Shown here piece after piece: positions 3,711-59,542 of a DNA stretch of 64,000 nt; position 1 is the stretch's first letter, and every line of letters starts with the position of its first letter. The DNA is from Acidimicrobiales bacterium. GTDB lineage: Bacteria > Actinomycetota > Acidimicrobiia > Acidimicrobiales > Iamiaceae. A model generated the notes under the pieces. It saw only the letters and a list, made by a program, of their open reading frames with translations. It had not been told where the DNA came from and ran no database searches. The stretch covers positions 2,201-66,200 of the forward strand of contig JAODBM010000192.1 of the NCBI GenBank assembly GCA_025463985.1. The letters are read 5' to 3'. A program made the position numbers and the translations under genes.

Positions 3711-3778
3711 TCCTGCGGTTCCGCTAAATGATTTAATGTATCAACCGGGCAAGGACGACGAGCGCCGCGGAGCTGGAC

Positions 3779-4963
3779 ATGGATGACCTGTTGACCTCTG
3801 AGCAAGAGCAGTTGCGCGCCGACGTGCGCGACTTCATCGACGGGTCGGTGATCCCGGCCGAGGACGCGCTCTACGGGGGCGGGCTCAACGGCCTCGCCAC
3901 GATGGAGAAGCTCAAGGCCGAGGCGAAGGAGCGCGGCCTGTGGGCGCTCGGCCACCCGAAGGAGATCGGCGGCGGGGGCCTGCCCTTCATGGCGATGACG
4001 CTCATGAACGCGGTGATCGGGCGGTCGTTCTTCGGCCAGTCCGCGATCGGCTCGTGGTCGATGCAGGACTCGATCATGCTCAACCTCTACGGCACCGACG
4101 AGCAGAAGGCGCGCTGGCTGGGCCCGCTCGTCGCCGGTGAGATCCGCTCCTCGATCGGCATGACCGAGCCCGAGGTCGCGGGGTCGGACCCGAAGCTGAT
4201 CCAGTCCACCGCGGTGCTCGACGGCGACGAGTGGGTGATCAACGCCCACAAGTGGTTCACCACGGGCGCGAACATCGCGGCCTTCACGACCGTCTTCGCC
4301 GTCACCGAGCCCGACGATGCGCCGCCGCACCGCCGCATCTCGTCCATCCTGGTCCCCACCGACAGCCCCGGCTACGAGGTCGTGCGCGTCATGGAGACGA
4401 TGGGGGAGACCGTCGGCGCCCACTGCGAGATCCGCCTCACCGACGTGCGGGTTCCCGCCGACCACCTGCTGGGCGGTCGCGGCGAGGGGTTCCTCATCAG
4501 CCAGAAGCGGCTCGGCCCCGGGCGCATCTTCCACTGCATGCGCTGGCTCGGGCAGGCGATCCGGGCGTTCGAGCTCATGTGCGAGTACTCCACCCGCCGG
4601 TTCGCCCACGGGTCGATGCTCTCGGAGAAGGGCGAGATCCAGCGCTACATCGCGGAGTCGGCGGCGGACATCCAAGCCCATCGCCTGCTGACCCTCGACG
4701 CGGCCCAGGCGTTCGACCGCGGCGAAGACACGCGGCTGCAGGTGAGCCTGGCCAAGTTCCGCGGCGCGCAGATCCTCAACGACGTGATCGACCGAGCGAT
4801 CCAAGTCCACGGCGCGCTCGGCATCACCGCGGACACGCCGCTCGAGCGGATGTACCGCGAGGCGCGGGGCGCGCGGATCTACGACGGGCCCGACGAGGTC
4901 CACCGGATGGTGGTGGCCCGCAAGCTCGCGAAGGACCCGGGCGCGGCACCCTGGGCCTCGTAG
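3779..4963 (+). CDS. Acyl-CoA dehydrogenase (ACAD10/11 / FadE2-like type)
   Basis: 394-aa ORF with motifs GMTEPEVAGSDP, NAHKWFTTGA and ARIYDGPDEVHRMVVARKL. An A/T-rich box lies in the 68-bp upstream gap. Confidence 0.9.
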   Translation: MDDLLTSEQEQLRADVRDFIDGSVIPAEDALYGGGLNGLATMEKLKAEAKERGLWALGHPKEIGGGGLPFMAMTLMNAVIGRSFFGQSAIGSWSMQDSIMLNLYGTDEQKARWLGPLVAGEIRSSIGMTEPEVAGSDPKLIQSTAVLDGDEWVINAHKWFTTGANIAAFTTVFAVTEPDDAPPHRRISSILVPTDSPGYEVVRVMETMGETVGAHCEIRLTDVRVPADHLLGGRGEGFLISQKRLGPGRIFHCMRWLGQAIRAFELMCEYSTRRFAHGSMLSEKGEIQRYIAESAADIQAHRLLTLDAAQAFDRGEDTRLQVSLAKFRGAQILNDVIDRAIQVHGALGITADTPLERMYREARGARIYDGPDEVHRMVVARKLAKDPGAAPWAS

Positions 4964-5000
4964 CCGGCCGCCGCGTGGGCGCCGAGCGGGTCGGGCGACG

Positions 5001-6158
5001 ATGACCGCGGACCCGTTGATCGCGATCGCCGACGGGCCCGACAACCCCGGCATCTCGCCGGCCGAGGTGTGCGAGATGCTCGGGCTGCGCGACCCGCAAA
5101 CCTTGATCGGCTGGACGGTCGAGGACACGCCGTGGCTCGCGGACCTCGAGCCGGGCCGCACCCGGTCGATCATGGGCGGCTACGGCTTGACCGCGGCGAT
5201 CGCGGACGGACGCGTGACCTACCTGCCGGTCCGCCTCGCGTCGGTGCCGCGCCTCCTGGCCGGTGCGCTGCGGCCGAACGTCGCGGTGGTCAGCGGGTGC
5301 TGGCGGGGTGACCGGCTGGTGTTCCGCGGCAGCGTCGGCTGGGCCGCCGCGGCCGCCGCGAACGCCGACGTCGTGGTCGTCGAGGTCGACGCCGAGGCCC
5401 CCGACATCGGTGCGCCCGAGATCCCGGGCCGCATCGGGCCCGTCGTCGACCGCCAACGGCAACCTCGGCCCGTGGTTCGCCGGGCGCCCACCCCTGCCGA
5501 CGAGCAGATCGGCGCGCACGTCCGCTCGCTGCTCCCCGAGGGCGCCACGCTGCAGCTGGGCATCGGCGGGATCGCCGACGCGGTCCTCGGCCAGCTCGAT
5601 CGACCGGTGACGATCTGGTCGGGGCTCGTGTCCGATGGCCTGGTCGATCTCGACGAGCGCGGGCTGCTCGAAGGCACGGCCACCACGACCTACGTCTGGG
5701 GCGGTTCCCGCCTGCTCGACCTCGCGGCAGCGGGCCGCCTGCGCGTCGTCCCGGTCGAGCAGAGCCACGACCTGGGGGCGCTGCGGTCGCTGCAGCGCTT
5801 CGTCACGGTCAACGCCGCGGTCGAGGTGGCGCTCGACGGGTCGGTCAACGTCGAGCGCAGCGGTGGCCGGGTGGTCGGCGGGATCGGCGGGCACGCCGAC
5901 TTCTGCGCCGCGGCTGCCCTCGGGCGGGACGCGCTGTCGGTGGTGGCGGTCCGGGCCGAGCATGCGGGCCGCTCGACGATCCAGCGCCGGGTCGAGGTGG
6001 TCTCGACCGGCCGCTCCGACGTCGACGTGGTGGTCACCGAGCACGGCATCGCCGACCTCCGCGGCCTCGGTGACACCGAGCGGGCCGAGCGCCTCATCGC
6101 GGTGGCCGCGCCGCACCATCGCGACGGGCTGCGCTCGACGCTCGACAGGATTGAGTGA
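5001..6158 (+). CDS. Acetyl-CoA hydrolase/transferase family protein (4-hydroxybutyrate CoA-transferase-like)
   Basis: 385-aa ORF with the family-typical GGIGGHADF motif and LQLGIGGIADAVL. It is somewhat shorter than typical family members. Confidence 0.7.
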   Translation: MTADPLIAIADGPDNPGISPAEVCEMLGLRDPQTLIGWTVEDTPWLADLEPGRTRSIMGGYGLTAAIADGRVTYLPVRLASVPRLLAGALRPNVAVVSGCWRGDRLVFRGSVGWAAAAAANADVVVVEVDAEAPDIGAPEIPGRIGPVVDRQRQPRPVVRRAPTPADEQIGAHVRSLLPEGATLQLGIGGIADAVLGQLDRPVTIWSGLVSDGLVDLDERGLLEGTATTTYVWGGSRLLDLAAAGRLRVVPVEQSHDLGALRSLQRFVTVNAAVEVALDGSVNVERSGGRVVGGIGGHADFCAAAALGRDALSVVAVRAEHAGRSTIQRRVEVVSTGRSDVDVVVTEHGIADLRGLGDTERAERLIAVAAPHHRDGLRSTLDRIE

Positions 6159-6184
6159 CAAACGCCTAATTGTTCAACTATATT
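6155..6184 (+). promoter_or_regulatory. Putative sigma-70-type promoter: -35 GTGACA, 18-nt spacer containing GCCTAAT, -10 TATATT
   Basis: GTGACA is at 6155-6160 and TATATT at 6179-6184 (fits TANNNT). It lies 22 nt upstream of ATG 6206, which is preceded by GAGGAG. Confidence 0.45.
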
Positions 6185-8072: not shown

Positions 8073-8310
8073 CAACTGGGCGGGGATGCGGTCGCCCCGG
8101 CAACCGGGATGCCGCCCAGTTGCGGGGGTGCGGCCAACTGGGCGGGGATGCGGTCGCCCCGGCAACCGGGATGCCGCCCAGTTGCGGGGGGCGCGGCCAA
8201 CTGGGCGGGGATGCGGTCGCCCCGGCAACCGGGATGCCGCCCAGTTGCGGGGGGCGCGGCCAACTGGGCGGAGTCTCGGTCGCCCCGGCAACCGGGATGC
8301 CGCCCAGTTG
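8073..8310. repeat. Tandem array of four 62-63 bp units, each an imperfect ~50 bp palindrome (CAACTGGGCGG-N28-CCGCCCAGTTG)
   Basis: Units start at 8073, 8135, 8198 and 8261. Units 2 and 3 are identical, unit 1 differs in the linker, and unit 4 has 4 substitutions in the loop. The 11-bp arms are perfect in all four. The array fills the gap between two convergent genes. Confidence 0.95.
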
Positions 8311-8333
8311 CGGGTTGGTTGCGGGGGCGCGGG

Positions 8334-9779: not shown

Positions 9780-10494
9780 CGGCTCGATCCTCGGGGGTGT
9801 AGCTGTAGTGCTCGCCGCCGACGGAGATGAAGATCGCCTCCGCCTCGGCGCACAACGTGGTGCCGACGCGTGCCTCGCCGGCCACGTTGATCTTCCGGCC
9901 GTCGACCGAGACGAGGGCGCTGGTCAGCGCGACCTCCTGGTCGACCGGCACGCCGGCGCGGAAGCGGATCGTCAGCGTGCCGGTGACCACCATGAGGCCG
10001 GTCAGCGCGGCTTGGCGGCCGAGCACGTAGTCGAACGCCGAGGCGAGGAACCCGCCCTGGATCACGCCGGGCGCGCCCTCGTACGCGTTGCTGAACGTGC
10101 ACGTGGCGCGGATGGAGTCGGCGCCCTCGTCGATGACCAGGGGAGCGGCCAGCCCGCTCGACGCGCCGACGATCGGATGGCCCTCCCAGACGTCGGGCTG
10201 GTCGCCGCTGATCGTGCGCATGCCGCCGCTGCGGTGGTGGCGACTGGCGACGGCGAACGGCGCGAGTCGATCGGCGGCCGCCTCGATGTCTGCGACCGCA
10301 CCGTCGAGCTCGGCCACCGGCGGATCGGCGAACGCCACGATCGGGATGAGCGTGCGGATCGCCGCCGCGGCGCGCCGGCGGGCGGCGACCATGCGTGCTG
10401 CAACGTCCCCCGCATCGGCCACTCGGGCGACGGTACCAGGGCCCGCGCGGCCCCGATCGCTGGCCACTTCCAGCGGCTCCGGCGGATCAGTCAT
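9769..10494 (-). CDS. Hotdog-fold (PaaI-type) thioesterase with an Ala-rich N-terminal extension
   Basis: 241-aa ORF whose C-terminal half carries GAPGVIQGGFLASAFDYVLG. It overlaps the downstream ligase gene by 11 nt. Confidence 0.65.
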   Translation of the reverse strand: MTDPPEPLEVASDRGRAGPGTVARVADAGDVAARMVAARRRAAAAIRTLIPIVAFADPPVAELDGAVADIEAAADRLAPFAVASRHHRSGGMRTISGDQPDVWEGHPIVGASSGLAAPLVIDEGADSIRATCTFSNAYEGAPGVIQGGFLASAFDYVLGRQAALTGLMVVTGTLTIRFRAGVPVDQEVALTSALVSVDGRKINVAGEARVGTTLCAEAEAIFISVGGEHYSYTPEDRADDR

Positions 10495-10523
10495 CTCATT
10501 ATGCTATTCCGCGGGCTGATCGT

Positions 10524-10552
10524 TTGACAGTCGTCTAATTCGCTTATACATT
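10524..10552 (+). promoter_or_regulatory. Putative promoter: -35 TTGACA, 17-nt spacer containing GTCTAAT, -10 TACATT
   Basis: TTGACA is at 10524-10529 and TACATT at 10547-10552. It sits in the divergent gap between the thioesterase (-) and the fused ACAD (+). Confidence 0.55.
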
Positions 10553-18856: not shown

Positions 18857-20904
18857 GCGGGGGCGGCCACGACGGGTTCGAGCACCGGCTCGAGGGTCAC
18901 GGCGATGCCGGAGAAGCGGGGCATGCCGGTGAGCGGATCGAGGTCGTCGACGTCGGACGTCAGCTGGTTGACGTCAGGGCCGCTCCATCCATGGGGCAGC
19001 GAGACGACGCCGGGCCGCATGGCGGAGCTGATCTCCACCATGGCGGTCGTCTCGCCGTGCCGGGATCGGACGTGGGCCCCGGCGCCGTCGGTGAGGTGGT
19101 AGGCCGCCGCGTCCTGCGGGTGCACCAGGAGCGTGGGGAGCGGGCGGCGCTGCTGCGACGCCACCTCGCGCAGCAGGCTGTTCATCTGGTGCGGGAGCCG
19201 GCGGTTGACGAGCGCCAGGCCCGGCGGCGCGGGTGCCGCGTCCCGCCAGGCCTCAAGCTGGTCGACGAGCTCGGCCGGCGCGAGGTCGAGCCGCCCCCTC
19301 GGGATCCGGTCGGGGACCACCCAGCCGACCTCGGGCGCGTCGTCCGCCACGATGCCGCTGGGGGCGGCCTTGATCTGCTCGAACGTGGCCCGGCCGCTGC
19401 GCGCCGCGCCGGCCAGCACCGCGTCGTCGTCGAGCGGGTCGTTCGGCGCCTCGGGCAGCCGGACGCCCATCTTGCGGCCGAGCTCGGACACGATCCACCA
19501 CGTGGCCCGCCGCTGCCCGGCCGGCTCGACCACGCGTGCGCCGTACTGGGTGAACGGGATCGGGAACGTGCCGTCGACGTACGCGGGCATGTCGGCCCGC
19601 TCCAGCTGGCCGGTGCCGGCGAGGAGGTGGGTCGCGAGGTCGGTGGTCTCAGTCCGCCGGACGTCGTGGACGGCCAGGACGTCGAGCGAGGTGAGCGCAG
19701 CGCGCGTCTTGTCGCTGTCGGGGAAGACCTTGGCCGGGTTGCCGCCGAACACGAGCAGTGCCCGGACGCCGCCCGAGAGGATCTCGTCGTTGAGGACCGC
19801 GGCCGGGAGCTCGCCCCAGGTCTGGCTGAACTCCGGCCGGCTCGTCGCGGCAGCACCGGTGACGCGCGGCCGGCTGGCGATGCGGCTCTCCATGGGTCGG
19901 AGGAAGCCGCGGGTGAACAGCACGCCGCCGGGACGGTCGAGGCTGCCGGTCACCGCGTTCAGCGCCCACGAGAGCCACTCGGCGGCGTTCGGGGCCTCGC
20001 TCATCGAGACGCCCGTGCCGCAGGAGGTCGCCACGCGCGGCGTCGTCACCAGCAGCTCGACGACCTCGGCCAGCGTCGCGAGCGGCACGCCGCAGCGCGC
20101 CGCGGTGGTCGCCGCGTCGAAGGGCTCGACGCAACGCCGCAGCAGGTCGAGCGATGCCGCGTCGACGGCCGCGTCAAGGAACTCGGTGTCCGGTCGGCGG
20201 GCGAGCACCTCGCGCACGAGGTGACCGAGGAGCGCGGCGTCGGTGCCCGGGAGCAGCTGCACGTGGACGTCGGCGCCCGCGGCGCTCTCGGTGATCCGCG
20301 GGTCGACCACGACGACCTTGCCGCCGGAGGCGCGGATCTGGCGCAGCTCCTGGAGCGCGTTCGGCCACATGACGCCGTGGCCGTGCGACACGATCGGGTT
20401 CTGGCCGACGAGGATCACCAGCCGCGCGTTCTCGCGATCGGGGAACGGCAGCAGCAGCGGCGAACCGGTCATGAGGTCGGCGACGAGCAGCTTGTTCGGC
20501 GTGTCGAGCGTCAACGAGCTGTAGATCTGGTTGGTGCCGAGGGCCCGCGCGAACGAGTCGATGAAGTAGCGCCCGGCGGCGTCGAACGCCCAGCCCGCCG
20601 ACCGGTAGATGGCGACCGCGTCGGGGCCGTGCTCGTCGACGACGGTCCGCAGCCGGGCCGCGAGATCGTCGAGCGTCTCGTCCCACGATGCCGCCTGACC
20701 GGCCAGCGCCGGGTCGTCGAGCCGGTCCTCGTGGTGGTGCATGGCCGGCAGCGCGCGGCCCTTCGAGCACGTGTAGCCCTGCGACACCGGGTGGTCGCTG
20801 TCGCCGCGCACGCTGACGATCTGCTCTCCGTCGGCGGTGACCACGATCCCGCAGGATGCTGCGCAGATGCGGCAGAACGTTCGAACCTCACGGCGGTCGG
20901 CCAC
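18853..20904 (-). CDS. Molybdopterin (MopB/DMSO-reductase superfamily) oxidoreductase, cytoplasmic, with an N-terminal 4Fe-4S motif
   Basis: ORF 18853..20931. I prefer GTG 20904, which is preceded by GGAG 5 nt upstream; GTG 20931 is the alternative. The Cys cluster is CRICAASCG...YTCSKG. There is no twin-arginine signal peptide. The C-terminus MPRFSGIAVTLEPV is typical of the molybdopterin-binding domain. Confidence 0.85.
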   Translation of the reverse strand: MADRREVRTFCRICAASCGIVVTADGEQIVSVRGDSDHPVSQGYTCSKGRALPAMHHHEDRLDDPALAGQAASWDETLDDLAARLRTVVDEHGPDAVAIYRSAGWAFDAAGRYFIDSFARALGTNQIYSSLTLDTPNKLLVADLMTGSPLLLPFPDRENARLVILVGQNPIVSHGHGVMWPNALQELRQIRASGGKVVVVDPRITESAAGADVHVQLLPGTDAALLGHLVREVLARRPDTEFLDAAVDAASLDLLRRCVEPFDAATTAARCGVPLATLAEVVELLVTTPRVATSCGTGVSMSEAPNAAEWLSWALNAVTGSLDRPGGVLFTRGFLRPMESRIASRPRVTGAAATSRPEFSQTWGELPAAVLNDEILSGGVRALLVFGGNPAKVFPDSDKTRAALTSLDVLAVHDVRRTETTDLATHLLAGTGQLERADMPAYVDGTFPIPFTQYGARVVEPAGQRRATWWIVSELGRKMGVRLPEAPNDPLDDDAVLAGAARSGRATFEQIKAAPSGIVADDAPEVGWVVPDRIPRGRLDLAPAELVDQLEAWRDAAPAPPGLALVNRRLPHQMNSLLREVASQQRRPLPTLLVHPQDAAAYHLTDGAGAHVRSRHGETTAMVEISSAMRPGVVSLPHGWSGPDVNQLTSDVDDLDPLTGMPRFSGIAVTLEPVLEPVVAAPA

Positions 20905-20992
20905 GCTCGCTCCGTTTCGCAGGTGCCCCACTACCCGGCGGCGCCCAAAATAGTATAAGAATCACACCGTATATCGGCACCCAGGAGCTTGC

Positions 20993-21643
20993 ATGACCTT
21001 CGACCTCGAGCAAACCGACCGCTTGCTGCAGACCACCCGGGCCGTGCGCAAGCGCCTCGACCTCGACCGCCCCGTGGAGCGGTCCGTCGTGCTCGACTGC
21101 TTGCGGCTCGCGATCCAGGCCCCGTCGGGCGGCAACAGCCAGCCCTGGCGCTGGATCGTCATCGACGACCAGCCCACGAAGGACGCGCTGGCGGGCCTCT
21201 ACCGGGAGGCGTACGCGCCGTACATCGCGTCGCGCAAGGCAGAGCTCGCGGCCCAGGGCGGCAACGCCGATCACCCGATCGCCCAGTCGTCCGACTACCT
21301 GGCCGAGCACCTCGAGGAGGTGCCCGTGATGGTGATCCCGTGCCTGCTGGGCCGGGTCACCGCCGACGACTCGCCCGGCCACGTCGCCGGCTTCTTCGGC
21401 TCGGTGATGCCGGCGGTGTGGAGCTTCATGCTCGCCCTGCGCAGCCGCGGCCTCGGCTCCGCGTTCACGACGCTGCACCTCGAGCGCGAGAAGGAGGCGG
21501 CCGCGCTGCTCGGTGTGCCCGACACCGTCACGCAGCTGGCACTGCTGCCCGTCGCGTACACCAAGGGCGACGACTTCCGGCCGGCCGACCGCAAGCCGGT
21601 CGAGGACGTGACGTACTGGAACGGGTGGCGGCAGCGCGGCTAA
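20993..21643 (+). CDS. Nitroreductase-family protein
   Basis: 216-aa ORF with AGGAG upstream. The motif RAVRKRLDLDRPV...APSGGNSQPWRW is typical of the nitroreductase fold. Confidence 0.8.
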   Translation: MTFDLEQTDRLLQTTRAVRKRLDLDRPVERSVVLDCLRLAIQAPSGGNSQPWRWIVIDDQPTKDALAGLYREAYAPYIASRKAELAAQGGNADHPIAQSSDYLAEHLEEVPVMVIPCLLGRVTADDSPGHVAGFFGSVMPAVWSFMLALRSRGLGSAFTTLHLEREKEAAALLGVPDTVTQLALLPVAYTKGDDFRPADRKPVEDVTYWNGWRQRG

Positions 21644-21683
21644 TGCGTTAAACTATTCAGCAGTTCCCAAGGGGGAGGCCCAG

Positions 21684-22934
21684 GTGACGAAGCCGATGGA
21701 GGGCGTGCGCGTCCTCGAGGTGGCGATGTTCGGCTTCGTGCCGAGCGCCGCTGCGATCCTGTCCGATTGGGGGGCCGACGTCATCAAGGTCGAGCACCCC
21801 GACGGCGGCGACCCGGTGCGCCGGCTGTCGGCGTGGGGCGTGGAGCCCGGCGCGGGTGGGCTGACGTACCTCTGGGAGGTGTTCAACCGCGGCAAGCGGA
21901 GCGTCACGATCGACATCCGCAACCCCGAGGGGCGTGACGTCCTGCTGGACCTGGTCGACCAGGCTGACGTGTTCCTCACGAACTTCCTGCCGCCGGCCCG
22001 CCGCAAGCTCGGCATCGACGCCGACGAGATCATGGCCCGCAACCCGCGGATCGTCTACGCCCGCGGCAGTGCCCACGGACCGCTCGGCCCCGACGCCGAG
22101 AAGGGCGGCTTCGACGGGCTCACGTACTGGGCCGGCGCCGGGCCGAGCATGGCCGCCCGCCCGGCCGGCGTCGACGAGCCGATCCCGATGCCGGGGCCGG
22201 CGTTCGGCGACATCCAGGCCGGCTCGCAGCTGGCCGGCGCGATCGGCGTCGCGCTGTTCAACCGCGAGCGCACCGGTGCGGGCTGCGTGGTCGACCACTC
22301 GTTGCTGGCCTCGGGGCTCTGGGCGATGCAGGCGACGATGGCCGGCACCCACACCTCGGGCCTGACCGAGCTGCCCGCGCAGGACCGCATGGGTCCCGTC
22401 AGCCCGCTCGGCAACTGGTACCGCACGTCCGACGCCCGCTGGGTGTTCCTCGGCTTCAACGAGCCCGACCGCTCGTGGCCGCGGTTCTGCGAGCTCGTCG
22501 GGCGGCCGGAGCTCACCTCGGACGGCCGCTTCGGCACGGAGGCGGCCCGCGCCGCCAACATGAAGGCCTCGATCGAGCTGCTCGACGAGATCGTCGCCGA
22601 GCACACCCTCGCCGAGTGGCAGGGCATCCTGGGCGCCCAGGAGGGTCCGTGGGCGGTGCTGCGCACGCCGCGCGAGCTGCTCGACGACGAGCAGGCCATC
22701 GCCAACGGCTTCATCCAGACGGTCGACTACGACAGCGGCGCCACGTTGAAGCTCGTGTCGGCCCCCGGCCAGTTCGACGGCACGGTGCCGACGCTCGTCC
22801 CCGCCCCCGGCCACGGCGCCGACACCGACACCGTGCTGGCCGAGCACGGGTTGACCGTCGCGCAGATCGGAGCGCTCCGCGACGGCGGTGCGATCGGATC
22901 CAGCCCGTCGACCCCGGCTGTCGAGCCTGCGTGA
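21684..22934 (+). CDS. Family III CoA-transferase (CaiB/BaiF/alpha-methylacyl-CoA racemase family)
   Basis: GTG start after AAGGGGGAG. Motifs are MTKPMEGVRVLEV, DWGADVIKVEHP and FNRGKRSVTIDI. Confidence 0.9.
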   Translation: MTKPMEGVRVLEVAMFGFVPSAAAILSDWGADVIKVEHPDGGDPVRRLSAWGVEPGAGGLTYLWEVFNRGKRSVTIDIRNPEGRDVLLDLVDQADVFLTNFLPPARRKLGIDADEIMARNPRIVYARGSAHGPLGPDAEKGGFDGLTYWAGAGPSMAARPAGVDEPIPMPGPAFGDIQAGSQLAGAIGVALFNRERTGAGCVVDHSLLASGLWAMQATMAGTHTSGLTELPAQDRMGPVSPLGNWYRTSDARWVFLGFNEPDRSWPRFCELVGRPELTSDGRFGTEAARAANMKASIELLDEIVAEHTLAEWQGILGAQEGPWAVLRTPRELLDDEQAIANGFIQTVDYDSGATLKLVSAPGQFDGTVPTLVPAPGHGADTDTVLAEHGLTVAQIGALRDGGAIGSSPSTPAVEPA

Positions 22935-24529
22935 CGGCGCCGCCCAACCCCGCTCCGTGGGCCACGATCGGTGCGCTCGTCGAGGATGCCATCGCGCGGT
23001 TCCCCGACCTCGAGGCGGTGGTCGAGGGCGGTGAGCGGTGGACCTTTCGCTCGCTCGGCGACCGCATCCACGAGGCCGCCCGCGCCCTGATCGCGAGCGG
23101 CGTCGCGCCGGGCGATCGGGTGTCGGTGTGGGCGCCGAACATCCGCGAGTGGGTGGTCATCTCGCTTGCGATCCACAGCGTCGGTGCCGTCCTCGTGCCG
23201 ATCAACACGCGGTTCAAGGGCGGCGAGGCGGCGTACGTCCTGCGCAAGGCGAAGGTCCGCCGCGTCTTCACCGTGACCGACTTCCTCGACGTCGACTACG
23301 TCGAGGTGCTGCGCTCCGAGGCGGACCTCGAGCTCGACGAGATCGTGGTCCTGCGCGGCCCGTCCCACCCCGGCGCGACGTCGTGGGAGGACTTCGTGCG
23401 CCGCGGTGCCGACGTCGACGACGCCGAGCGCACCGCCCGCGTGGCCGCGGTTAGCGGCGAGGACCCGTGCCACATCCTCTTCACCTCGGGCACCACCGGT
23501 GCGCCGAAGGGCGCGGTGCTCGGGCACGCGGCCGTGTGCACCGCGTACTCCGTCTACGCCGACAACGTCGGCCTGCGCACCGGCGATCGCTACCTGATCG
23601 TGCTGCCGTTCTTCCACTCGTTCGGGTTGAACGCCGGGATCCTCGTCTGCCTCATGGCCGGCGCCACGATCGTGGCCGAGCCCGTGTTCGACGTGGAGTC
23701 GGTGCTGGAGCGCATCGTGGAGGAGCGGATCACCGCGTTCCCCGGCGCGCCGACCGTCTACCAGACCCTGCTCGCGGCCCCGGCCGCGACGCGGGAGAAG
23801 CTGACCACGCTCCGGCTGGCCGTCGTGTCCTCGGCCGCCATCCCGGTCGAGATGATCCGCCAGATGAGCAGCGTGCTGAAGATCGACACGATCATCACCG
23901 GCTACGGGCTCACCGAGGCGTCCGGCATCGTCGCGATGTGCCGTCACGGCGACGACCCCGAGGTGATCGCCCAGACGGCTGGCCGCACCGTCGAGGGCAT
24001 GACGATCCGCATCGCCGACGAGGCGGGCAACGAGCTGCCGGCCGAGGTGGCCGGTGAGGTCCTCGTGCGCGGCTACACGGTGATGCAGGGCTACTTCGAC
24101 GACCCCGAGCAGACCGCGCAGACGATCGACGCCGAGGGCTGGCTGCACACCGGCGACATCGGGATGATCCGCGCCGACGGCAACCTCGTGATCACCGACC
24201 GGATGAAGGACATGTACATCGTGGGCGGGTTCAATACGTATCCCGCCGAGATCGAGAACGTGATGTCGACCCACCCGGCCATCGCCGCCGTGGCCGTGGT
24301 CGGCGTGCCCGACGAGCGCCTGGGCGAGGTCGGCTCGGCCTTTGTGATCCCGGCGAGCGGCGTCGCCGCCGACCCCGACGAGATCATGGCCTGGTGCCGA
24401 GGTCGCATGGCCAACTACAAGGTGCCCCGGCACGTCCACGTGGTCGAGGACTTCCCGCTCAACGCCACCGGGAAGGTGCTCAAGTTCAAGCTCCGGGTGC
24501 AGGCCCGCGACATGCTCGCCCCGAGCTGA
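22931..24529 (+). CDS. AMP-dependent acyl-CoA synthetase/ligase
   Basis: GTG 22931 overlaps the upstream stop (GTGA) inside ORF 22475..24529. Motifs are LFTSGTTGAPKG, TGDIGMIRADGNLVITDRMKDMYIVGGFNTYP and GKVLKF. Confidence 0.9.
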   Translation: MTAPPNPAPWATIGALVEDAIARFPDLEAVVEGGERWTFRSLGDRIHEAARALIASGVAPGDRVSVWAPNIREWVVISLAIHSVGAVLVPINTRFKGGEAAYVLRKAKVRRVFTVTDFLDVDYVEVLRSEADLELDEIVVLRGPSHPGATSWEDFVRRGADVDDAERTARVAAVSGEDPCHILFTSGTTGAPKGAVLGHAAVCTAYSVYADNVGLRTGDRYLIVLPFFHSFGLNAGILVCLMAGATIVAEPVFDVESVLERIVEERITAFPGAPTVYQTLLAAPAATREKLTTLRLAVVSSAAIPVEMIRQMSSVLKIDTIITGYGLTEASGIVAMCRHGDDPEVIAQTAGRTVEGMTIRIADEAGNELPAEVAGEVLVRGYTVMQGYFDDPEQTAQTIDAEGWLHTGDIGMIRADGNLVITDRMKDMYIVGGFNTYPAEIENVMSTHPAIAAVAVVGVPDERLGEVGSAFVIPASGVAADPDEIMAWCRGRMANYKVPRHVHVVEDFPLNATGKVLKFKLRVQARDMLAPS

Positions 24530-24592
24530 CCACCCAGAGCGCCATCTCGCTGGACGCAGTCGACGGGGCGAGCGGCGCGAGCGGCGTCGACG

Positions 24593-26098
24593 TCAGGCGC
24601 TGTGGGAGAGCTTGGCTTCGAGCTCGCTCTTGAGCACCCGGCGCAGGAGCTTGCCGGTCTCGCTGTAGGGCAGCTCGGTGCAGAACGTGATCTGGTCGGG
24701 CGTCCGCGACGAGCGGAGCTGCTCGCGCACCCACGCCTTGAGCTCGTCCTCCGTCGCGGTCTCGTCCTCGTCGAGCACGACGGCGGCGGCGACGGCCTCA
24801 CCCCACTCGCGGTCGGCGACGCCGAACACGGCGGCCTCGCGGACGGCCGGGTGGGTGAGGAGCACGTCCTCGATCTCGCCCGGCGACAAGTTCTCGGCGC
24901 CGCGCACGATGACGTCGTCGAGGCGGCCGTCGATGAACAGGTAGCCGGCGGCGTCGAGCCAGCCGCCGTCGTTGGTGTGGAACCAGCCGTCCGACGGCGC
25001 CTGCTCGCGGCCGACGTACTCGCCCGACACCTGCTCGCCGCGCACGCAGATCTCGCCCTTCTCGCCGGGACCGACGGGCGTGCCCTCGGGGTCGCAGATC
25101 GTGAGCTCGATGGTCGGCAGCGGCCGGCCGACCGAGCCGAGCCGGGCCCGCACCGTCGGGTCGTCGCTGGCGAAGGCCTCGCGGTGGTCGTCGGGCGTGA
25201 GCACGGCGATCGTCGACGCCGTCTCGGTGAGCCCGTAGGCGTTGACGAGGTTCACCTGGGGGAGCAGCGTCATCGCCCGCTCGACCACGGCCATCGGCAT
25301 GCGCCCGCCGCCGTAGGACAGGTGGCGCAGCGCCGGCAGCGCGTTCTCGCCGCTCTCCAGCTCGTCGAGGATCCGGTCCAGCATGGTGGGCACGACCATC
25401 GCGTGGGTGATCGCTTCCTGGCGGGCCAGCTCGACCCAGTTCTTCGGGGAGAACTGCGGGACGTAGACCAGCCGGCGCCCGCCGAACAGCGACGACAGCA
25501 CGGCCGAGATCGCGGCGATGTGGTACGGCGGCACGCTGACGAGAGCGGCCTCGTCGGCGTCGGAGCCCAGGAACTCGACGGTGTCGAAGATGTAGGACGT
25601 GAGGTGGCGGTGCCGGAGCACGGCCGCCTTCGGCTCGCCGGTCGTGCCGCTCGTGAACAGCAGCACCGCGATGTCGTCGGCGTCGGCGGGGATCGCATCC
25701 TCGGTGGTCGCTCCGCTGGTGACCTGCGCGAAGTCGCTCGCCAGCACCACCTCGATCCCCTCGGTCCCGGCGACGCGGTCGACCGCGCTCTCGTGGACGA
25801 CGGCGATGCCGGGCGCGCTGCGGGCCAGGATCGCTCGAAGGCGGTCGTCGGCCAGCCGGTAGTTGAGCGGGACGTAGGGGATGCCCGCGAACGCCGCGGC
25901 GAAGAGGTAGATCGGGATGGCCTCGGAGTTGACGTCGACGGCGATGAGGCGCTCGGCGCCCCGCTCACGAAGCCACGCCCCGGCCTCGGTGGCCCGGGCC
26001 AGCAGTTCCGACATCGTCAGGCCGCCGCTCAGCGACCCGACCGCGGCGCGGTCGGGCGCGCCGTCGGCGGCCATCTCCAAGAGCATCGCGATCGACAT
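24593..26098 (-). CDS. AMP-dependent acyl-CoA synthetase/ligase
   Basis: 501-aa ORF with motifs LFTSGTTGEPKA, NDGGWLDAAGYLFIDGRLDDVIVRGAENLSP and GKLLRR. Confidence 0.9.
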   Translation of the reverse strand: MSIAMLLEMAADGAPDRAAVGSLSGGLTMSELLARATEAGAWLRERGAERLIAVDVNSEAIPIYLFAAAFAGIPYVPLNYRLADDRLRAILARSAPGIAVVHESAVDRVAGTEGIEVVLASDFAQVTSGATTEDAIPADADDIAVLLFTSGTTGEPKAAVLRHRHLTSYIFDTVEFLGSDADEAALVSVPPYHIAAISAVLSSLFGGRRLVYVPQFSPKNWVELARQEAITHAMVVPTMLDRILDELESGENALPALRHLSYGGGRMPMAVVERAMTLLPQVNLVNAYGLTETASTIAVLTPDDHREAFASDDPTVRARLGSVGRPLPTIELTICDPEGTPVGPGEKGEICVRGEQVSGEYVGREQAPSDGWFHTNDGGWLDAAGYLFIDGRLDDVIVRGAENLSPGEIEDVLLTHPAVREAAVFGVADREWGEAVAAAVVLDEDETATEDELKAWVREQLRSSRTPDQITFCTELPYSETGKLLRRVLKSELEAKLSHSA

Positions 26099-26104
26099 GG
26101 GCGG

Positions 26105-26413: not shown

Positions 26414-26510
26414 GACCTACCCCCTCGTGAAGCGAAGCGACATACGGTACCATCCGGCCCGTAAATCGCCAACTAGTTAAGTTATTCAGACCGACCCAAG
26501 GGAGCCCTGT

Positions 26511-29612: not shown

Positions 29613-29624
29613 ATCGGACTGAAC

Positions 29625-32206: not shown

Positions 32207-32223
32207 CCGTCACGCCACGGCTC

Positions 32224-40082: not shown

Positions 40083-40194
40083 TCGCTCCCCCTTCGAGCA
40101 CCGGCCGCTCAGTACCGGTCAATTAGACAGATAGATTAGACTATTGTGTGATCGTAGCGGACGGGCGACCCTTCGGCTAGAGGCAGGGGATCTC

Positions 40195-46288: not shown

Positions 46289-46342
46289 GCCCCCTTGTGC
46301 CGGACCCTAGCCCGAACGACGTCGGCTAATCCCTACAATAGT

Positions 46343-46371
46343 TTGACTTGATCGCGACCGGCACGGACAAT
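46343..46371 (+). promoter_or_regulatory. Putative promoter: -35 TTGACT, 17-nt spacer, -10 GACAAT
   Basis: TTGACT is at 46343-46348 and GACAAT at 46366-46371, in the divergent gap. GGCTAAT (46324-46330) and TACAAT (46334-46339) lie immediately upstream. Confidence 0.35.
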
Positions 46372-46400
46372 GCGGACACACGAGATCGAGGGGAGGCCCC

Positions 46401-47397: not shown

Positions 47398-47850
47398 GTG
47401 TCCGATCCGGTGTTCCGCCCGGCCCTCCACATCCGCGGGTTCAACCGGCTGGTGGGCCTCGAGGTCGCCGAGGCGTCCGGCGATCGGGTCGTCGTCACCC
47501 TTCCGGTCCGCGACGAGCTCTTCCAGGTGCACGGGATCGTGCACGGGGGCGTGTGGTGCACGCTGGTCGAGACGGCGGCGAGCATCGGCGGTGGGCTGTG
47601 GATCGCCGACCGCGGATCCGCGGTCGGCGTGTCGAACCACACCGACTTCCTGCACGCGCTGCGGTCCGGCACGGTCACGGCCACGGCCACGCCGGTGCAC
47701 CGGGGCCGCCTCCAGCAGCTCTGGCTCGTCGAGGTGCGCGGCGACGATGGCCGGCTCGTCGCCCGCGGCGAGGTCAGGCTGCAGAACCTCGAGGACACGG
47801 CGCAGCTCGCGGCGGCGGCGTCGCCAACGGCGGGGGACGAGGGGCCGTGA
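47398..47850 (+). CDS. PaaI-family hotdog thioesterase
   Basis: Inside ORF 47170..47850. Candidate starts are GTG 47389, TTG 47395 and GTG 47398, after ACGAGG. Motif HGIVHGGVWCTLVETAAS. Confidence 0.75.
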   Translation: MSDPVFRPALHIRGFNRLVGLEVAEASGDRVVVTLPVRDELFQVHGIVHGGVWCTLVETAASIGGGLWIADRGSAVGVSNHTDFLHALRSGTVTATATPVHRGRLQQLWLVEVRGDDGRLVARGEVRLQNLEDTAQLAAAASPTAGDEGP

Positions 47851-48518
47851 CCCCTCCAGCCGCAGGGCCGGCCGCCGAACCGGACGATGCGCCGGCGCCG
47901 TCCCCGGCCGCTCCGCGCAAGCGGGGTCGCCCCCGCAACCTCGAACCGAGCGCCGAGTACCGCCAGCGCCTCGAGAACATCGTGACCGTGGCCGCCGAGG
48001 TGTTCACCGCGCAGGGCTACGAGTCCGGCTCGCTCGACGACGTGGCCGCGGCGCTCGGGCTCCGCAAGGCCAGCCTCTACTACTACGTCAAGAAGAAGAG
48101 CGACCTGCTGCGACTCGTGTTCGACCGTGCCATCACCACCGCCCTGGAACAGGTCGAGGCGCTGGGCCACATCGAAGACCCCAAGGACCGGCTCTCGGCG
48201 CTGATCCGCCATCAGGCCCACCTGGTCGTCCGCGACCCGTCGCTGTTCGCGGTGTTCTTCGACCACCGAGCCGGCCTCACCGACGAGGCCATGGCGGACA
48301 TCGAGCCGAACGAGCGTCGTTACGTCCGGCACTTCGTGTCGGCGGTCGGGGCGGCCATGGACGCGGGCCACATCGCGAAGGCCGACCCCCGCACGGTCGC
48401 CCACGCCGTGCTCGGGATGACGAGCTGGTCGTACAAGTGGTTCGACCCGGCTCGCGACAGCGCGGACGGGTTCGCCGAGGCGTGCGTCGCGCTGGTGTTT
48501 CCACCCATTCGGACTTAA
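47847..48518 (+). CDS. TetR/AcrR-family transcriptional regulator
   Basis: GTG 47847 overlaps the thioesterase stop (GTGA) inside ORF 47553..48518. The helix-turn-helix is SLDDVAAALGLRKASLYYYVKKKSDLL. Confidence 0.85.
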   Translation: MTPPAAGPAAEPDDAPAPSPAAPRKRGRPRNLEPSAEYRQRLENIVTVAAEVFTAQGYESGSLDDVAAALGLRKASLYYYVKKKSDLLRLVFDRAITTALEQVEALGHIEDPKDRLSALIRHQAHLVVRDPSLFAVFFDHRAGLTDEAMADIEPNERRYVRHFVSAVGAAMDAGHIAKADPRTVAHAVLGMTSWSYKWFDPARDSADGFAEACVALVFPPIRT

Positions 48519-48542
48519 TCAATAAATTATTCGACTCATCGG

Positions 48543-48572
48543 TTGACAAAAGTCGCGGCTCGGCCATACCGT
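48543..48572 (+). promoter_or_regulatory. Putative promoter: -35 TTGACA, 18-nt spacer, -10 TACCGT
   Basis: TTGACA is at 48543-48548 and TACCGT at 48567-48572. The 11-nt palindrome AATAAATTATT (48521-48531) lies just upstream. The hexamers match those of the promoter candidate at 55442. Confidence 0.5.
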
Positions 48573-48627
48573 CTTCGGTGCTGCGGGACCGCCCTTCGCG
48601 GCAGCACGTTCTAAGACGGAGGACGCG

Positions 48628-54421: not shown

Positions 54422-55428
54422 GAGCGCCGTCCGAGCTCGCCCTCGACGATCTCGCCGGCGTGATGACGGCGGCGCTCGGTCAGCCCGTGACCGTCGACGG
54501 GCTCACTCGCCTGAAGGGCGGCTACTCGCGGGAGATGTGGACGTTCGACGCCCGCACCGCCGCGGGCGACGTGCTCGAGCTGGTGCTCTGCGCCGACGGT
54601 CCGGCCGGCGTCGTGGAGCGGGGCGCGCAGTCGCTCGATCGGGTCGAGGAGCACGCGCTCCTGCAGGCGCTCCATGGCCATGGGCTCCCGGTCCCCGCGG
54701 TGTTCGCCACCGGTGACGGCACGCACGACCTCCGGCGCCCGTTCCTCGTGATGGAGCGCGTGTCGGGCACGGCGGCGATCGGCCCGCTCATGCGCGAGCA
54801 GCACTACGTCGAGCGCCGCCACGCGTTCGCCACGCAGAAGGCCGAGATCCTCGCGGCGATCCACGCCGCCCCGGTGCTCGACACGCTGCCGGCGCGCCTG
54901 CGCCCGGCCCCCGACGCGCTCGCGGCCGACGAGGTGCGCCGCTGGGCCGCGGCGTACGACGAGACCCCCGCGGCCGCGACGCCGACCGTGCGGAGCGCCA
55001 TCGCCTGGCTCGAGGCGAACATCCCGGCGGCGCCGGCCGAGCTCGTGCTCGTGCACGGCGACTACCGCACCGGAAACCTGATGTACGGCCCCGAGGGCAT
55101 CCGCACGGTCCTCGACTGGGAGATGGCCCACCTCGGCGACCCGGTCGAGGACGTCGCTTGGGCCCAGCTCGTGTCCTGGCGGGCCGGGACCGGGCTCGTC
55201 GGCGTGCTGGTCGACCAGCCGACGTGGGTGGCGCTCTACGAGAAGGCCGCGGGGCGCACCGTCGACCCGGCGGTGCTGCGGTTCTGGGAGGTCGTCGCCG
55301 CCGTGAAGATGGCGAGCCTCGCCTGGCGCGCGCGCGAGATGACCGAGGAGCCCCGCGAGCGCGACCTGCTCGGCCGGATCTTCGACGACCTCGGCCGCGA
55401 GCTCGGTCAGGTCCTGCGGCCGGATTGA
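54418..55428 (+). CDS. APH-family phosphotransferase (kinase)
   Basis: ATG 54418 overlaps the LLM stop (ATGA); GTG 54400 is an alternative. Motifs are LVHGDYRTGNLMYG and VLDWEMAHLGDPVEDVA. Confidence 0.85.
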   Translation: MRAPSELALDDLAGVMTAALGQPVTVDGLTRLKGGYSREMWTFDARTAAGDVLELVLCADGPAGVVERGAQSLDRVEEHALLQALHGHGLPVPAVFATGDGTHDLRRPFLVMERVSGTAAIGPLMREQHYVERRHAFATQKAEILAAIHAAPVLDTLPARLRPAPDALAADEVRRWAAAYDETPAAATPTVRSAIAWLEANIPAAPAELVLVHGDYRTGNLMYGPEGIRTVLDWEMAHLGDPVEDVAWAQLVSWRAGTGLVGVLVDQPTWVALYEKAAGRTVDPAVLRFWEVVAAVKMASLAWRAREMTEEPRERDLLGRIFDDLGRELGQVLRPD

Positions 55429-55441
55429 TTCTACTGACGGG

Positions 55442-55470
55442 TTGACAGAAATCCGGCGGGGTCCTACCGT
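55442..55470 (+). promoter_or_regulatory. Putative promoter: -35 TTGACA, 17-nt spacer, -10 TACCGT
   Basis: TTGACA is at 55442-55447 and TACCGT at 55465-55470. It lies 22 nt upstream of ATG 55492, which follows TGGAGG. Confidence 0.5.
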
Positions 55471-56256: not shown

Positions 56257-56262
56257 TAACAT
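56257..56262 (+). promoter_or_regulatory. -10-like hexamer TAACAT placed 7 nt before the ATG of the DUF35 gene (possible leaderless transcript)
   Basis: TAACAT (TANNNT) is at 56257-56262. ATG 56270 has no Shine-Dalgarno sequence upstream. The hexamer is embedded in the near-palindrome CTAACATTAG (56256-56265). Confidence 0.35.
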
Positions 56263-56269
56263 TAGTTGA

Positions 56270-56668
56270 ATGAGTGAGCGCATCACGCTGGTCGACTACC
56301 TGACGCTCGACGACGCCGACGAGCCGCACCTCGTCGCCAACGAGTGCGGCACGTGCGGCGCCCGCTACTTCGGGCGGCGCAACGCCTGCGCGTCGTGCTT
56401 CGGCACCGACTTCGCCAAGGTCACCGTGCCGAGCGAGGGCGTCGTCCGTTCGTTCACCATCGTCGCCCAAGCCGCACCGGGGGTGCCGGTGCCGTTCGTC
56501 GCCGCCGTCGTCGACTGCGACGGCACGAGGGTGCGCAGCAACCTGATCAACGTCGACCCCGATCCCGAGCACGTCGTGCTCGGGATGAAGGTGCGCCTCG
56601 CGACCTACCTGGTCGGCACCGATGCGAGCGGCACCGACGCGATCGGCTTCGGCTTCGAGCCGATGTGA
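56270..56668 (+). CDS. DUF35 protein (zinc-ribbon + OB-fold, acyl-CoA-associated)
   Basis: 132-aa ORF with the rubredoxin-like ribbon CGTCGARYFGRRNACASC followed by an OB-fold-like C-terminus. It lies immediately upstream of an SCPx-type thiolase. Confidence 0.8.
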   Translation: MSERITLVDYLTLDDADEPHLVANECGTCGARYFGRRNACASCFGTDFAKVTVPSEGVVRSFTIVAQAAPGVPVPFVAAVVDCDGTRVRSNLINVDPDPEHVVLGMKVRLATYLVGTDASGTDAIGFGFEPM

Positions 56669-57910: not shown

Positions 57911-57946
57911 CGGCAGGCGGCGACGCCGGCTGGGCGGGTCACGGCG

Positions 57947-59470
57947 CTACCTGCTGTCGTCGGAGCGTGCGGGCAGTCGGGCGAGCGTGAGGATCGCGGC
58001 CAGGACCAAGATGGCGATCGCCAGCAGCAGGGTCTGGCTGAACGCGATCACGAACTCGGACCGCGCCGCCGCCACCACCTGGGGGCGCAGGGGATCGGCG
58101 AGCGAGGCGGCGGCGTCCACGGCCCCGCCGATCGAGCCGCGCGCCCGGTCGATCACCGTCGCGGGCGCCGCGAGCTCGGCGAGGCGGGCGTCGACCCCGC
58201 GGGCGTAGGAGGCGGCCAGGATCGACCCGAGCACGGCCACGCCGAGCACGCCGCCGATCTGGCTGATCGTGTCGTTGACGGCCGAGCCGACACCGGCCTT
58301 CCCGTGCGGCAGCGAACCCATCACCGATTCGGTCACGGGCGCGATCACGAGGCCCATGCCGAGGCCGAGCAGCACGAGGCCGCCGACGAGGTGGTTGTAG
58401 CCGTCGGTCACCGGGACCCCGCGGATCACGACCACGCCGGCGGCGACCACCAGCGCGCCCGTGCCGACCACGAGCTTGGTGCCGACGCGCTCGACGATGC
58501 GCGGCGCGCACGGTCCCATCACGAGCAGGGTGAGGGCGAACGGCAGCATCCGGAACCCGGCCTGCAGCGCCGAGTAGCCGAGCACTGTCTGCAGGTACTG
58601 CGTCAACAGGAACTGCGTCCCGAACATCACGAAGAAGCACATCGTGAGCGTGCCGTTGGCGACCGAGAAGCGGCGGCTGCGGAACAGCGAGAGGTCGAGC
58701 ATCGGCTGGCCGCAGGCCCGCTCCCAGCGCAGGAACGCCGCGAACACGGCGATCCCGACGGCCAGGCTGAGGATGATCGCCGGCGAGCTCCACCCGTGCG
58801 TCGGCGCTTCGATGATCGCCCATACCACGGCGACGAGCCCCGCGATGCTGAGCAGCGCGCCGAGGGGGTCGAGGCCACGGCTGTTCGGATCCTTCGAGTC
58901 CGGCAGCACGAACCGGCCGGCGACCAGCGCGACCAGCGCGATGGGGACGTTGATGAGGAACACCGAGCCCCACCAGAAGCGCCCGAGCAGCAGCCCACCG
59001 AGCACGGGACCGGCCGCCGCGCCGAGGCCGACGACCGCGGCCCACACGCCGATCGCCCGGGCCCGGCGTTGCGGCTCGGGGAAGACGTGGGTGAGCAGCG
59101 AGAGGGTCGACGGCAGGATCAGCGACGCGCCGACGCCCATGCCCGCTCGGCTGAGGATCAGCATCAGGGTGGACACGGCGAAGGCCGAGGCTGCGGATCC
59201 GGCGGCGAAGATCGTGAGGCCGACGCCGAGCGTCGTCTTGCGCCCGAAGCGGTCGCCGATGCTGCCGGACGTCACGAGCAGGCCGGCGAAGACGAGCGTG
59301 TAGCCGTCGAAGATCCACTGCAGGGCGCTGTTCGACGCGTGGAGGTCGCGGGAGAAGGCTGGGAGGGCGATCGTGACGATCGCGTTGTCGAGACCGACCA
59401 CGAGCACGCTCATGCAGAGGACCAGCAGGGCGACCCCTTGCGCCCGTCCCCGAACCTCCTCGGTTGGCAC
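57947..59470 (-). CDS. MFS transporter, DHA2 (14-TMS drug:H+ antiporter-like) family
   Basis: This is the 3' part of ORF 57947..60712. GTG 59470 is the first start that keeps TM1 intact. Motifs are LDNAIVTIALP and GDRFGRK. It has many hydrophobic segments. Confidence 0.8.
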   Translation of the reverse strand: MPTEEVRGRAQGVALLVLCMSVLVVGLDNAIVTIALPAFSRDLHASNSALQWIFDGYTLVFAGLLVTSGSIGDRFGRKTTLGVGLTIFAAGSAASAFAVSTLMLILSRAGMGVGASLILPSTLSLLTHVFPEPQRRARAIGVWAAVVGLGAAAGPVLGGLLLGRFWWGSVFLINVPIALVALVAGRFVLPDSKDPNSRGLDPLGALLSIAGLVAVVWAIIEAPTHGWSSPAIILSLAVGIAVFAAFLRWERACGQPMLDLSLFRSRRFSVANGTLTMCFFVMFGTQFLLTQYLQTVLGYSALQAGFRMLPFALTLLVMGPCAPRIVERVGTKLVVGTGALVVAAGVVVIRGVPVTDGYNHLVGGLVLLGLGMGLVIAPVTESVMGSLPHGKAGVGSAVNDTISQIGGVLGVAVLGSILAASYARGVDARLAELAAPATVIDRARGSIGGAVDAAASLADPLRPQVVAAARSEFVIAFSQTLLLAIAILVLAAILTLARLPARSDDSR

Positions 59471-59542
59471 CGCGCCCTCACTCGCCTCGAAAGCAACAGG
59501 TAGATGAATGATATAGTATGACGACAAAGAGAGGGGAACTTC

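Follow-up and report, generated by a model that had tools for sequence, protein, structure and literature searches.

A 64-kb stretch of contig JAODBM010000192.1 (hereafter the window, meaning the stretch at its full length) contains a recurrent AT-rich motif, (G)TTAnACTATT, in the gaps of what appears to be a dense cluster of CoA-dependent catabolic genes for fat- or steroid-type degradation in an uncultured, high-GC actinobacterium. The motif is restricted to intergenic AT-rich islands, is informative beyond the TAnnnT hexamer that it holds, is essentially absent from related clusters, and is distinct from a second element linked to the TetR-family gene of the window. We tentatively interpret it as the operator of a dedicated transcription factor that overlaps -10 regions and marks an organism-specific regulon. 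Protein binding, repression and gene co-regulation at the motif are predictions from sequence: a dedicated factor that is not identifiable in the window would bind the motif in about 12 promoter gaps, would sit on or next to the -10 and transcription start site (TSS) region of mostly -35-less promoters, and would repress these promoters together until a pathway metabolite appears.

The motif in the AT-rich islands

The G+C content is 71% across the window. A codon-bias gene model, whose gene starts are predictions, gave 59 genes and 36 gaps, with 2775 nt of intergenic DNA (4.3% of the window). An AT-rich island was present in 14 of the 17 non-convergent gaps of at least 60 nt; the original prediction, that most promoter gaps hold such an island, is therefore correct.

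We searched both strands of 27 promoter-capable gaps by in-house expectation maximization (EM) of the zero-or-one-occurrence-per-sequence (ZOOPS) type, the EM and the shuffles (12-25 per test) being our own implementation. The search converged on GTTAAACTATT / AATAGTTTAAC. The EM score was 67.4 at width 12 and 88.0 at width 16, compared with 38.2+-2.9 and 52.4+-4.1, respectively, in shuffles within island and non-island segments; in both cases none of 25 shuffles reached the observed score, and the motif stood at a z of about 9-10 against these island-preserving shuffles. When the T, A and T of every TAnnnT were frozen on both strands, the motif still gave z=4.3-5.7 (0 of 25 shuffles). The aligned core, T-T-A-n-A-C-T-A-T-T, showed agreement in 10-12 of 13 sites at nine positions, and the best-kept positions were the ATT after the hexamer (12 of 13 each) and the C at -8, or hexamer position 5 (10 of 13).

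All matches of at least 8 bits to the position weight matrix (PWM) in the 64 kb were intergenic, with one per island. Six to seven strong copies and about six weaker ones were found, one each in 12-13 gaps. The PWM was derived from the window itself, which we mitigated by leave-one-out scoring: the strong copies at 21647, 46337, 40135, 20949, 10498 and 26476 retained 10.5-14.3 bits, the copy at 28370 had an intermediate score of 8.9 bits, and those at 3727, 6168, 30951, 48521, 59512 and 32262 scored 4.7-7.8 bits. The original prediction had proposed a regulon signature shared by at least nine transcription units. With one copy per gap in 12-13 gaps, a regulon-type signature of this extent is plausible, although the sequence-specific element that carries it does not consist of the words originally proposed. 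A literature search for the motif strings returned primers and unrelated sequences only.

A sceptical explanation is that nothing specific recurs in these islands, which would be ordinary AT-rich -10 or melting regions of unrelated promoters that resemble one another through low-complexity composition plus TAnnnT. Measured against island composition, the motif carries 8.2 bits of information, roughly half of its sites are weak, the EM and shuffles are in-house with only 25 shuffles per test, and the single words and paired blocks described below do not stand out after correction. However, the z values with and without a fixed TAnnnT, the bits that the six strong sites keep under leave-one-out scoring and the single match among 122 related-cluster islands speak against this explanation, and we consider it improbable.

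Shorter words in the islands

The words first noticed in these islands, GNCTAAT, CTAAT and ATTCAG, were all found exactly at the coordinates that had been assigned to them. The 64 kb contain 8 copies of CTAAT/ATTAG, 7 of GNCTAAT and 4 of ATTCAG/CTGAAT, always in or touching intergenic DNA; the GGCTAAT at 21638 includes the TAA stop codon of the upstream gene. As fixed patterns, and against shuffles that keep island composition, the observed counts exceeded 0.72 expected for GNCTAAT (P<0.0002), 2.7 for CTAAT (P=0.006) and 0.72 for ATTCAG (P=0.005). Since the words had been picked after inspection, we applied a look-elsewhere correction, in which each was compared with the maximum reached by any AT-rich word of its type. 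GNCTAAT, the most frequent AT-rich 7-mer with one N in the window, then gave P=0.04, CTAAT about 0.1 and ATTCAG about 0.5; the enrichment over a composition-matched background thus holds for fixed patterns but is weak after post hoc correction.

Two further observations on these words were re-evaluated. The blocks at 21647 and 26476, described as nearly identical, agree at 21 of 30 positions, and the best pairs of shuffled gaps reach 20-23 of 30. CTAAT indeed lies exactly 5 nt after GTGACA 6155-6160 and 5 nt after TTGACA 10524-10529, a placement in the spacer that the original prediction took as typical of a repressor operator, but this reading rests on two sites.

The words are also placed inconsistently relative to (G)TTAnACTATT. 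Those at 28370 and 40135 are part of it, the one at 6164 is at its 3' end, those at 21638 and 46324 are 3-7 nt away from it, and the GTCTAAT at 10533 lies outside it. ATTCAG at 21655 and 26484 is the 3' edge of the motif followed by CAG (TATT/CAG), while GTCTAAT 10533 and ATTCAG 10550 are parts of the canonical promoter 10524-10552, the former in its spacer and the latter overlapping its -10. After (G)TTAnACTATT was masked, no second AT-rich motif was found in the gaps (z of about 1-2), only a Shine-Dalgarno sequence that was not significant; therefore, there is no independent GNCTAAT or ATTCAG box. The islands and the word recurrences are real, but the recurring unit is the longer motif, and the words are its pieces, its flanks, or parts of -10 elements and promoters.

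Comparison with related organisms

Related high-GC loci have AT islands at a density similar to that of the window (2.6 versus 2.8 strong islands per 10 kb). Of the 122 islands in about 470 kb of related clusters, a single one matched the AT motif at 9 bits or more, compared with 6 of 18 in the window under leave-one-out scoring (Fisher P=1.3e-5). The motif is therefore not a generic actinobacterial promoter feature.

The closest relatives that we found are distant. The fused acyl-CoA dehydrogenase of the window had at most 51% amino acid identity in a genome scan (about 50% in Acidimicrobiia-type metagenome-assembled genomes), a protein search gave at most 62% over the full length, and a metagenome scan with the CoA-transferase gave at most 63%. 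No conservation of CTAAT or of the AT motif was seen upstream of the genes in these relatives, and a plasmid collection yielded only short matches of 75-84%.

Some of the homologous clusters have recurrent AT-rich palindromes of their own in promoter gaps. In Kibdelosporangium aridum (L012), one with the core TGACGTCA occurs in three islands; a farmland contig from ENA (L019) has GTTAAC / AACGnnCGTT, and a further locus (L010) has AGTATACT. By analogy, these palindromes may support a regulatory interpretation of the motif in the window.

The TetR regulator and a 29-nt element

The only regulator found in the window is a TetR-family protein encoded on the plus strand at 47847-48518 (TetR_N and TetR_C_24 domains). 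The original prediction named this protein, besides a regulator outside the window, as a possible reader of the GNCTAAT/ATTCAG boxes, which would then be its operators for acyl-CoA-responsive co-repression of at least nine units. In favor of that assignment, GNCTAAT is the top word of its type even after correction, CTAAT follows the -35 by 5 nt in two promoters, the TetR gene has no competitor in the window, and the promoter gap of its operon (46289-46400) holds a strong copy of the AT motif. Its closest solved structure, AibR (E=4e-25, aligned residues 40-221), binds an acyl-CoA.

Many orthologs of the window TetR were found at 68-83% identity. We fetched six ortholog loci (L033-L038), in which the TetR is 65-73% identical to that of the window; several are syntenic with the window's TetR neighborhood. 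The helix-turn-helix (HTH; residues 61-92) is invariant between the window TetR and the six orthologs. In five of the six loci, and thus in at least five organisms, the TetR gene is immediately followed by a 29-nt element, ATTnATTCGACTGACCGGTTGACAGAAnT, within which lies the -35 of a TTGACA-17/18-TAnnnT promoter; L034 yielded no copy. With the further copies in L033, L035 and L037, the sites are at 8643, 4944 (minus), 651 (minus) and 7018 in L033, 8620 and 14813 in L035, 8622 in L036, 8679 and within the gap 2065-2169 in L037, and 7741 in L038.

A PWM built only from these non-window sites identified exactly two sites in the window, and the next best match scored 14 bits. The first, AATTATTCGACTCATCGGTTGACAAAAGT (48525-48553, plus strand; 38.8 bits), comes directly after the TetR stop codon and includes the -35 of the thiolase gene promoter, TTGACA-18-TACCGT. 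The second, ATTGATTCTACTGACGGGTTGACAGAAAT (55424-55452, plus strand; 36.9 bits), is associated with TTGACA-17-TACCGT upstream of the PaaA_PaaC-like gene 55492. The apparent copy of the AT motif at 48521-48531 is more plausibly the AT-rich 5' part of the first of these elements. Neither the left nor the right half of the 29-nt element scored on the AT-motif sites, and no AT-motif match of at least 9 bits was found in the six ortholog loci.

Since the 29-nt element is conserved and has two window sites whereas the AT motif is absent from the ortholog loci, the TetR most likely acts on this predicted operator, and thereby on the thiolase and PaaA-like promoters, and not through the AT islands. 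Together with the inconsistent placement of the words relative to -10, -35 and the EM motif and the lack of a second motif after masking, these findings make the assignment of the boxes to this TetR very unlikely.

A TACCG...CGGTA sequence of the AibR type was considered as the TetR operator and rejected: the orthologous promoters have TAGGTT or TAGCCT in place of the TACCGT at 48567, which is therefore simply a -10 element. Just after this -10, at 48573-48610 in the predicted 5' untranslated region of the thiolase mRNA, lies an imperfect GC-rich hairpin, GTGCTGCGGGACCGCCCTTCGCGGCAGCAC. The window TetR and the six orthologs share an invariant N-terminal PRKxGRPR (residues 23-30 of the window protein, where the stretch reads PRKRGRPRN) with the AT-hook core RGRP, and this arm could contact the AT-rich ends of the 29-nt element in the minor groove. 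The element itself is partly symmetric (TATTC...ACCGGT...GAAnT) and may fit two TetR dimers. The gap beside a conserved 311-aa protein with no Pfam match contains a TetR-type element in L037 (2065-2169) and the AT motif in the window (46289-46400), where ...CGACGTCGGCTAATCC stands in place of ...CGACCCGTCGGTTGACAAT; this difference suggests that one control element may have been replaced by another.

Relation of the motif to promoters

The pattern TTGAC-N17-20-TAnnnT occurs at 4 sites versus 0.21 expected, all intergenic and all aimed at the next gene. These canonical promoters, such as TTGACA-17-TACATT at 10524-10552 (plus strand), use TAC-type -10 hexamers (TACCGT, TACATT and TACGCT) and lack the AT motif. 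TACCGT/ACGGTA occurs only four times in the 64 kb (10430 and 26444 on the minus strand, 48567 and 55465 on the plus strand), always intergenic and gene-oriented, and in three of the four cases a TTGACA-like -35 precedes it at 17-18 nt. The housekeeping -10 in this DNA seems to be TAC-type and fairly GC-rich. Relative to canonical promoters, the motif lies upstream of the -35 (10498), in the spacer or -10 (6168 and 30951) or just downstream (32262 and 20949), a variation in position that is typical of transcription factor sites.

A possible but less favored explanation is that the motif is a special class of core promoter, a -35-independent extended -10 of the form G-n-TAnACT-ATT that is read by the housekeeping or an alternative sigma factor. 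TAnnnT stands in the motif frame at 9 of the 13 sites, with G at -14 in 6 of 13, and start codons follow the motif at a distance of 24-104 nt, with a Shine-Dalgarno sequence between the two. No sigma-70-type -35/-10 pair was found in the region 20000-33000, where six of the sites lie. The motif is asymmetric, and all six strong sites aim at a gene. On the other hand, neither the ATT after the hexamer nor the C at hexamer position 5 is conserved by sigma-70-type -10 elements, the canonical promoters of the window do without the motif, and the weaker copies in tandem gaps (3727, 28370 and 30951) lie on the strand opposite to the gene. The motif is also nearly missing from the related AT islands although housekeeping sigma recognition is conserved, and manual inspection revealed no fit to SigB/SigF-type GTTT...GGGTAT promoters.

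Several findings weigh against an operator. The hexamer frame just described is one, and in the gaps 21644-21683 and 26414-26510 (for the plus-strand gene) the only or best-placed -10 candidate falls within the motif. The shared orientation of the six strong sites is another, although five of them lie in divergent gaps, where orientation is uninformative. A weak second arm, AATAGTTnAACTATT, stands beside the asymmetric core, and dyad symmetry is weakest in the six strongest sites, where, by an eye count, the left arms share about 2 of 5 positions with AATAG. A palindrome-constrained EM gave AATagTTaAActATT at a z of about 10 versus shuffles, and scored 61, compared with 85 without the constraint; a search of all gaps for perfect inverted repeats whose arms are AT-rich gave only isolated, unshared ones. 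Dimeric HTH repressors do not typically have an asymmetric 10-11-mer as their site. No cognate regulator was found in the window, and the sole window regulator has a better candidate operator of its own. The modest information content and the weak half of the sites count here as well, as does the lack of a close relative for phylogenetic footprinting (best 57-63% amino acid identity).

We nevertheless rank an operator first and a special promoter class second, because the canonical promoters are separate from the motif, its position varies, its conserved positions are not those of sigma-70, and it is nearly absent from relatives.

The individual sites

The genes beside the sites share one theme, namely acyl-CoA dehydrogenases, CoA-transferases, acyl-CoA synthetases, SDR, amidohydrolases, P450 and luciferase-like monooxygenases. 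The strongest copy, GTTAAACTATT (21647-21657, plus strand; 14.9 bits, 14.3 leave-one-out), is 26 nt upstream of the GTG start codon of a CoA-transferase gene (21684) and holds the only TAnnnT (TAAACT) of its 40-nt gap. ATTAGACTATT (40135-40145, plus strand; 13.5 bits, 12.7 leave-one-out) lies in the divergent gap between a CoA-transferase gene (minus) and a luciferase-like monooxygenase gene (plus), and is preceded at 40122, 13 nt upstream, by a direct copy that is weaker, ATTAGACAGAT. GTCAAACTATT (46337-46347, minus strand; 13.1 bits, 12.0 leave-one-out), between the gene for the 311-aa protein (minus) and the divergent BKACE-thioesterase-TetR operon (plus), overlaps TACAAT and TTGACT on the plus strand. 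CTTATACTATT (20949-20959, minus strand; 12.4 bits, 11.1 leave-one-out) occupies the divergent gap between a molybdopterin oxidoreductase gene (minus) and a nitroreductase gene (plus), and GTTAAGTTATT (26476-26486, plus strand; 11.7 bits, 10.5 leave-one-out) the divergent gap 26414-26510, 24 nt upstream of an SDR gene (26511).

ATTATGCTATT (10498-10508, plus strand; 12.0 bits, 10.7 leave-one-out) precedes the canonical promoter of the fused acyl-CoA dehydrogenase gene, 15 nt upstream of its -35. On the minus strand this copy holds TAGCAT, followed after 6 nt by an alternative ATG (10494) of a thioesterase gene, which would lengthen the thioesterase to 241 aa; the mRNA may be leaderless (10494-10506). 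A second possible leaderless mRNA is that of a ChsH2-OB-like gene, where TAACAT is followed after 7 nt by the ATG at 56270 (56257-56272).

The sequence GTTAGACTAAT (28370-28380, minus strand; 11.2 bits, 8.9 leave-one-out), in which ATTAGTC and GTCTAAC had been noticed, lies upstream of an amidohydrolase gene (28431) and carries TATAAT and TAGTCT on the plus strand. At 6168-6182, two overlapping inverted weaker copies, GTTGAACAATT (minus; 10.2 bits) and GTTCAACTATA (plus; 7.6 bits), with a leave-one-out score of 7.6 bits, cover the spacer and -10 of GTGACA-18-TATATT upstream of an APH kinase gene. Other weaker copies are AGTAGACAATT (30951-30961, minus strand; 9.9 bits, 7.8 leave-one-out), directly upstream of TACGGT (30964) ahead of the P450 gene 30998, and ATTAAATCATT (3727-3737, minus strand; 9.8 bits, 7.4 leave-one-out), upstream of the acyl-CoA dehydrogenase gene 3779. 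The copy GTCATACTATA (59512-59522, minus strand; 9.0 bits, 6.1 leave-one-out), in the divergent gap between an MFS transporter gene (minus) and an amidohydrolase gene (plus), is weak, and CGTAAGCTCTT (32262-32272, plus strand; 8.2 bits, 4.7 leave-one-out), 10 nt downstream of the -10 of TTGACG-17-TACGCT, is doubtful.

A Pfam search of the window identified many acyl-CoA dehydrogenases, among them the fused 727-aa protein, whose homologs are named 3-oxochol-4-en-24-oyl-CoA dehydrogenase by JGI. The search also found family-III CoA-transferases, acyl-CoA synthetases, enoyl-CoA hydratases, a MaoC hydratase pair (ChsH-like), a ChsH2-type OB protein adjoining a thiolase-like protein, a thiolase, APH-type kinases, two P450s, luciferase-like monooxygenases, amidohydrolases, and ABC and MFS transporters. 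Where the genes for an enoyl-CoA hydratase and an acyl-CoA synthetase converge, the gap is filled by a 63-bp tandem repeat (8073-8314) of 3.9 copies with 96% identity. A GC-rich inverted repeat, CAACTGGGCGG...CCGCCCAGTTG, is present in every unit, and the array could be a terminator array or a REP-like element.

Implications for the regulation of the cluster

As a true regulon signature, the motif would show which of the approximately 60 lipid- or steroid-like degradation genes switch together, and it would separate the motif genes from a smaller, widely conserved core under TetR control (thiolase, MaoC pair, ECH, LLM, APH and PaaA-like). Such a signature could be used to assign pathway modules in metagenome-assembled genomes, and both GTTAAACTATT and the 29-nt TetR element are defined probes for DAP-seq or pull-downs. 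No general concept would change, as cluster-wide operator motifs are routine in actinobacterial catabolic regulons.

A more speculative arrangement, which we regard as doubtful, has two control systems stacked on each other: a conserved, RGRP-armed TetR acting on the 29-nt element at the -35 of two promoters, and an asymmetric 11-nt element, specific to the lineage, that would also serve as the -10 in about a dozen partly bidirectional promoters lacking a -35. The 11-nt element would be read either by an alternative sigma factor dedicated to it or by a factor encoded elsewhere that binds as a monomer or in tandem. If true, this would make it a hybrid of promoter and operator of a kind not yet described for Acidimicrobiia-like actinobacteria.

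Comparison with known systems

By-hand comparison revealed no fit of the motif to the IdeR iron box (about 11 of 19 at 28366), SigB/SigF-type GTTTAA...GGGTAT, the AmtR site CTAT-N6-ATAG, the McbR site TAGAC-N6-GTCTA, or the Thermus FadR site TTRNAC...GTNYAA.

AibR of Myxococcus xanthus (PDB 5K7F/5K7H/5K7Z) is an isovaleryl-CoA-binding TetR with an 18-bp near-perfect inverted-repeat operator, and it also shifts a second locus that encodes a putative acetyl-CoA acetyltransferase (PMC5389471). The window TetR gene also lies directly upstream of a thiolase gene. Neither the AT motif nor the 29-nt element is similar to the oligonucleotide of the AibR operator, GCTACCTACCGGTCGGTAGGT.

Actinobacteria have -35-less promoters with an extended -10, in which TAnnnT often has a G at -14. 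The motif shares the TAnnnT core, the G two bases upstream in about half of the sites, and the distance of 24-104 nt from the starts. It differs in the additional C at -8 and ATT at -6 to -4, in its weak copies on the wrong strand, in its absence from the AT islands of related organisms but for one match, and in the motif-free canonical promoters beside it. Warman et al. reportedly described in 2021 that symmetric -10 elements, with TAnnnTA read on both strands, give bidirectional promoters. The core TAnACTA conforms to TAnnnTA, and 6 of the 13 sites are in divergent gaps with a single AT island; however, -10 symmetry alone leaves the conserved flanking T, the ATT and the C at -8 unexplained.

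KstR and KstR2 of Mycobacterium and Rhodococcus are TetR repressors with short operators in most promoter gaps of the cholesterol catabolic cluster. Neither the KstR operator TnnAACnnGTTnnA nor the KstR2 operator AnCAAGnnCTTGnT, both 14-bp palindromes, had a match on either strand of the 64 kb, and the window TetR matched the NCBIfam KstR model at E=0.008 only. Unlike the KstR and KstR2 operators, the motif is largely asymmetric and has no cognate regulator found in the window. The window nevertheless resembles their regulons in having a large acyl-CoA or steroid-side-chain-type cluster (ChsH-like MaoC pair, ChsH2-OB and thiolase-like proteins, fused and paired acyl-CoA dehydrogenases, P450s and CoA-transferases) and one short AT-containing motif per promoter gap in most gaps, often over the predicted -10 and TSS region. 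By analogy, the joint repression proposed here would functionally resemble that of KstR or FadR regulons.

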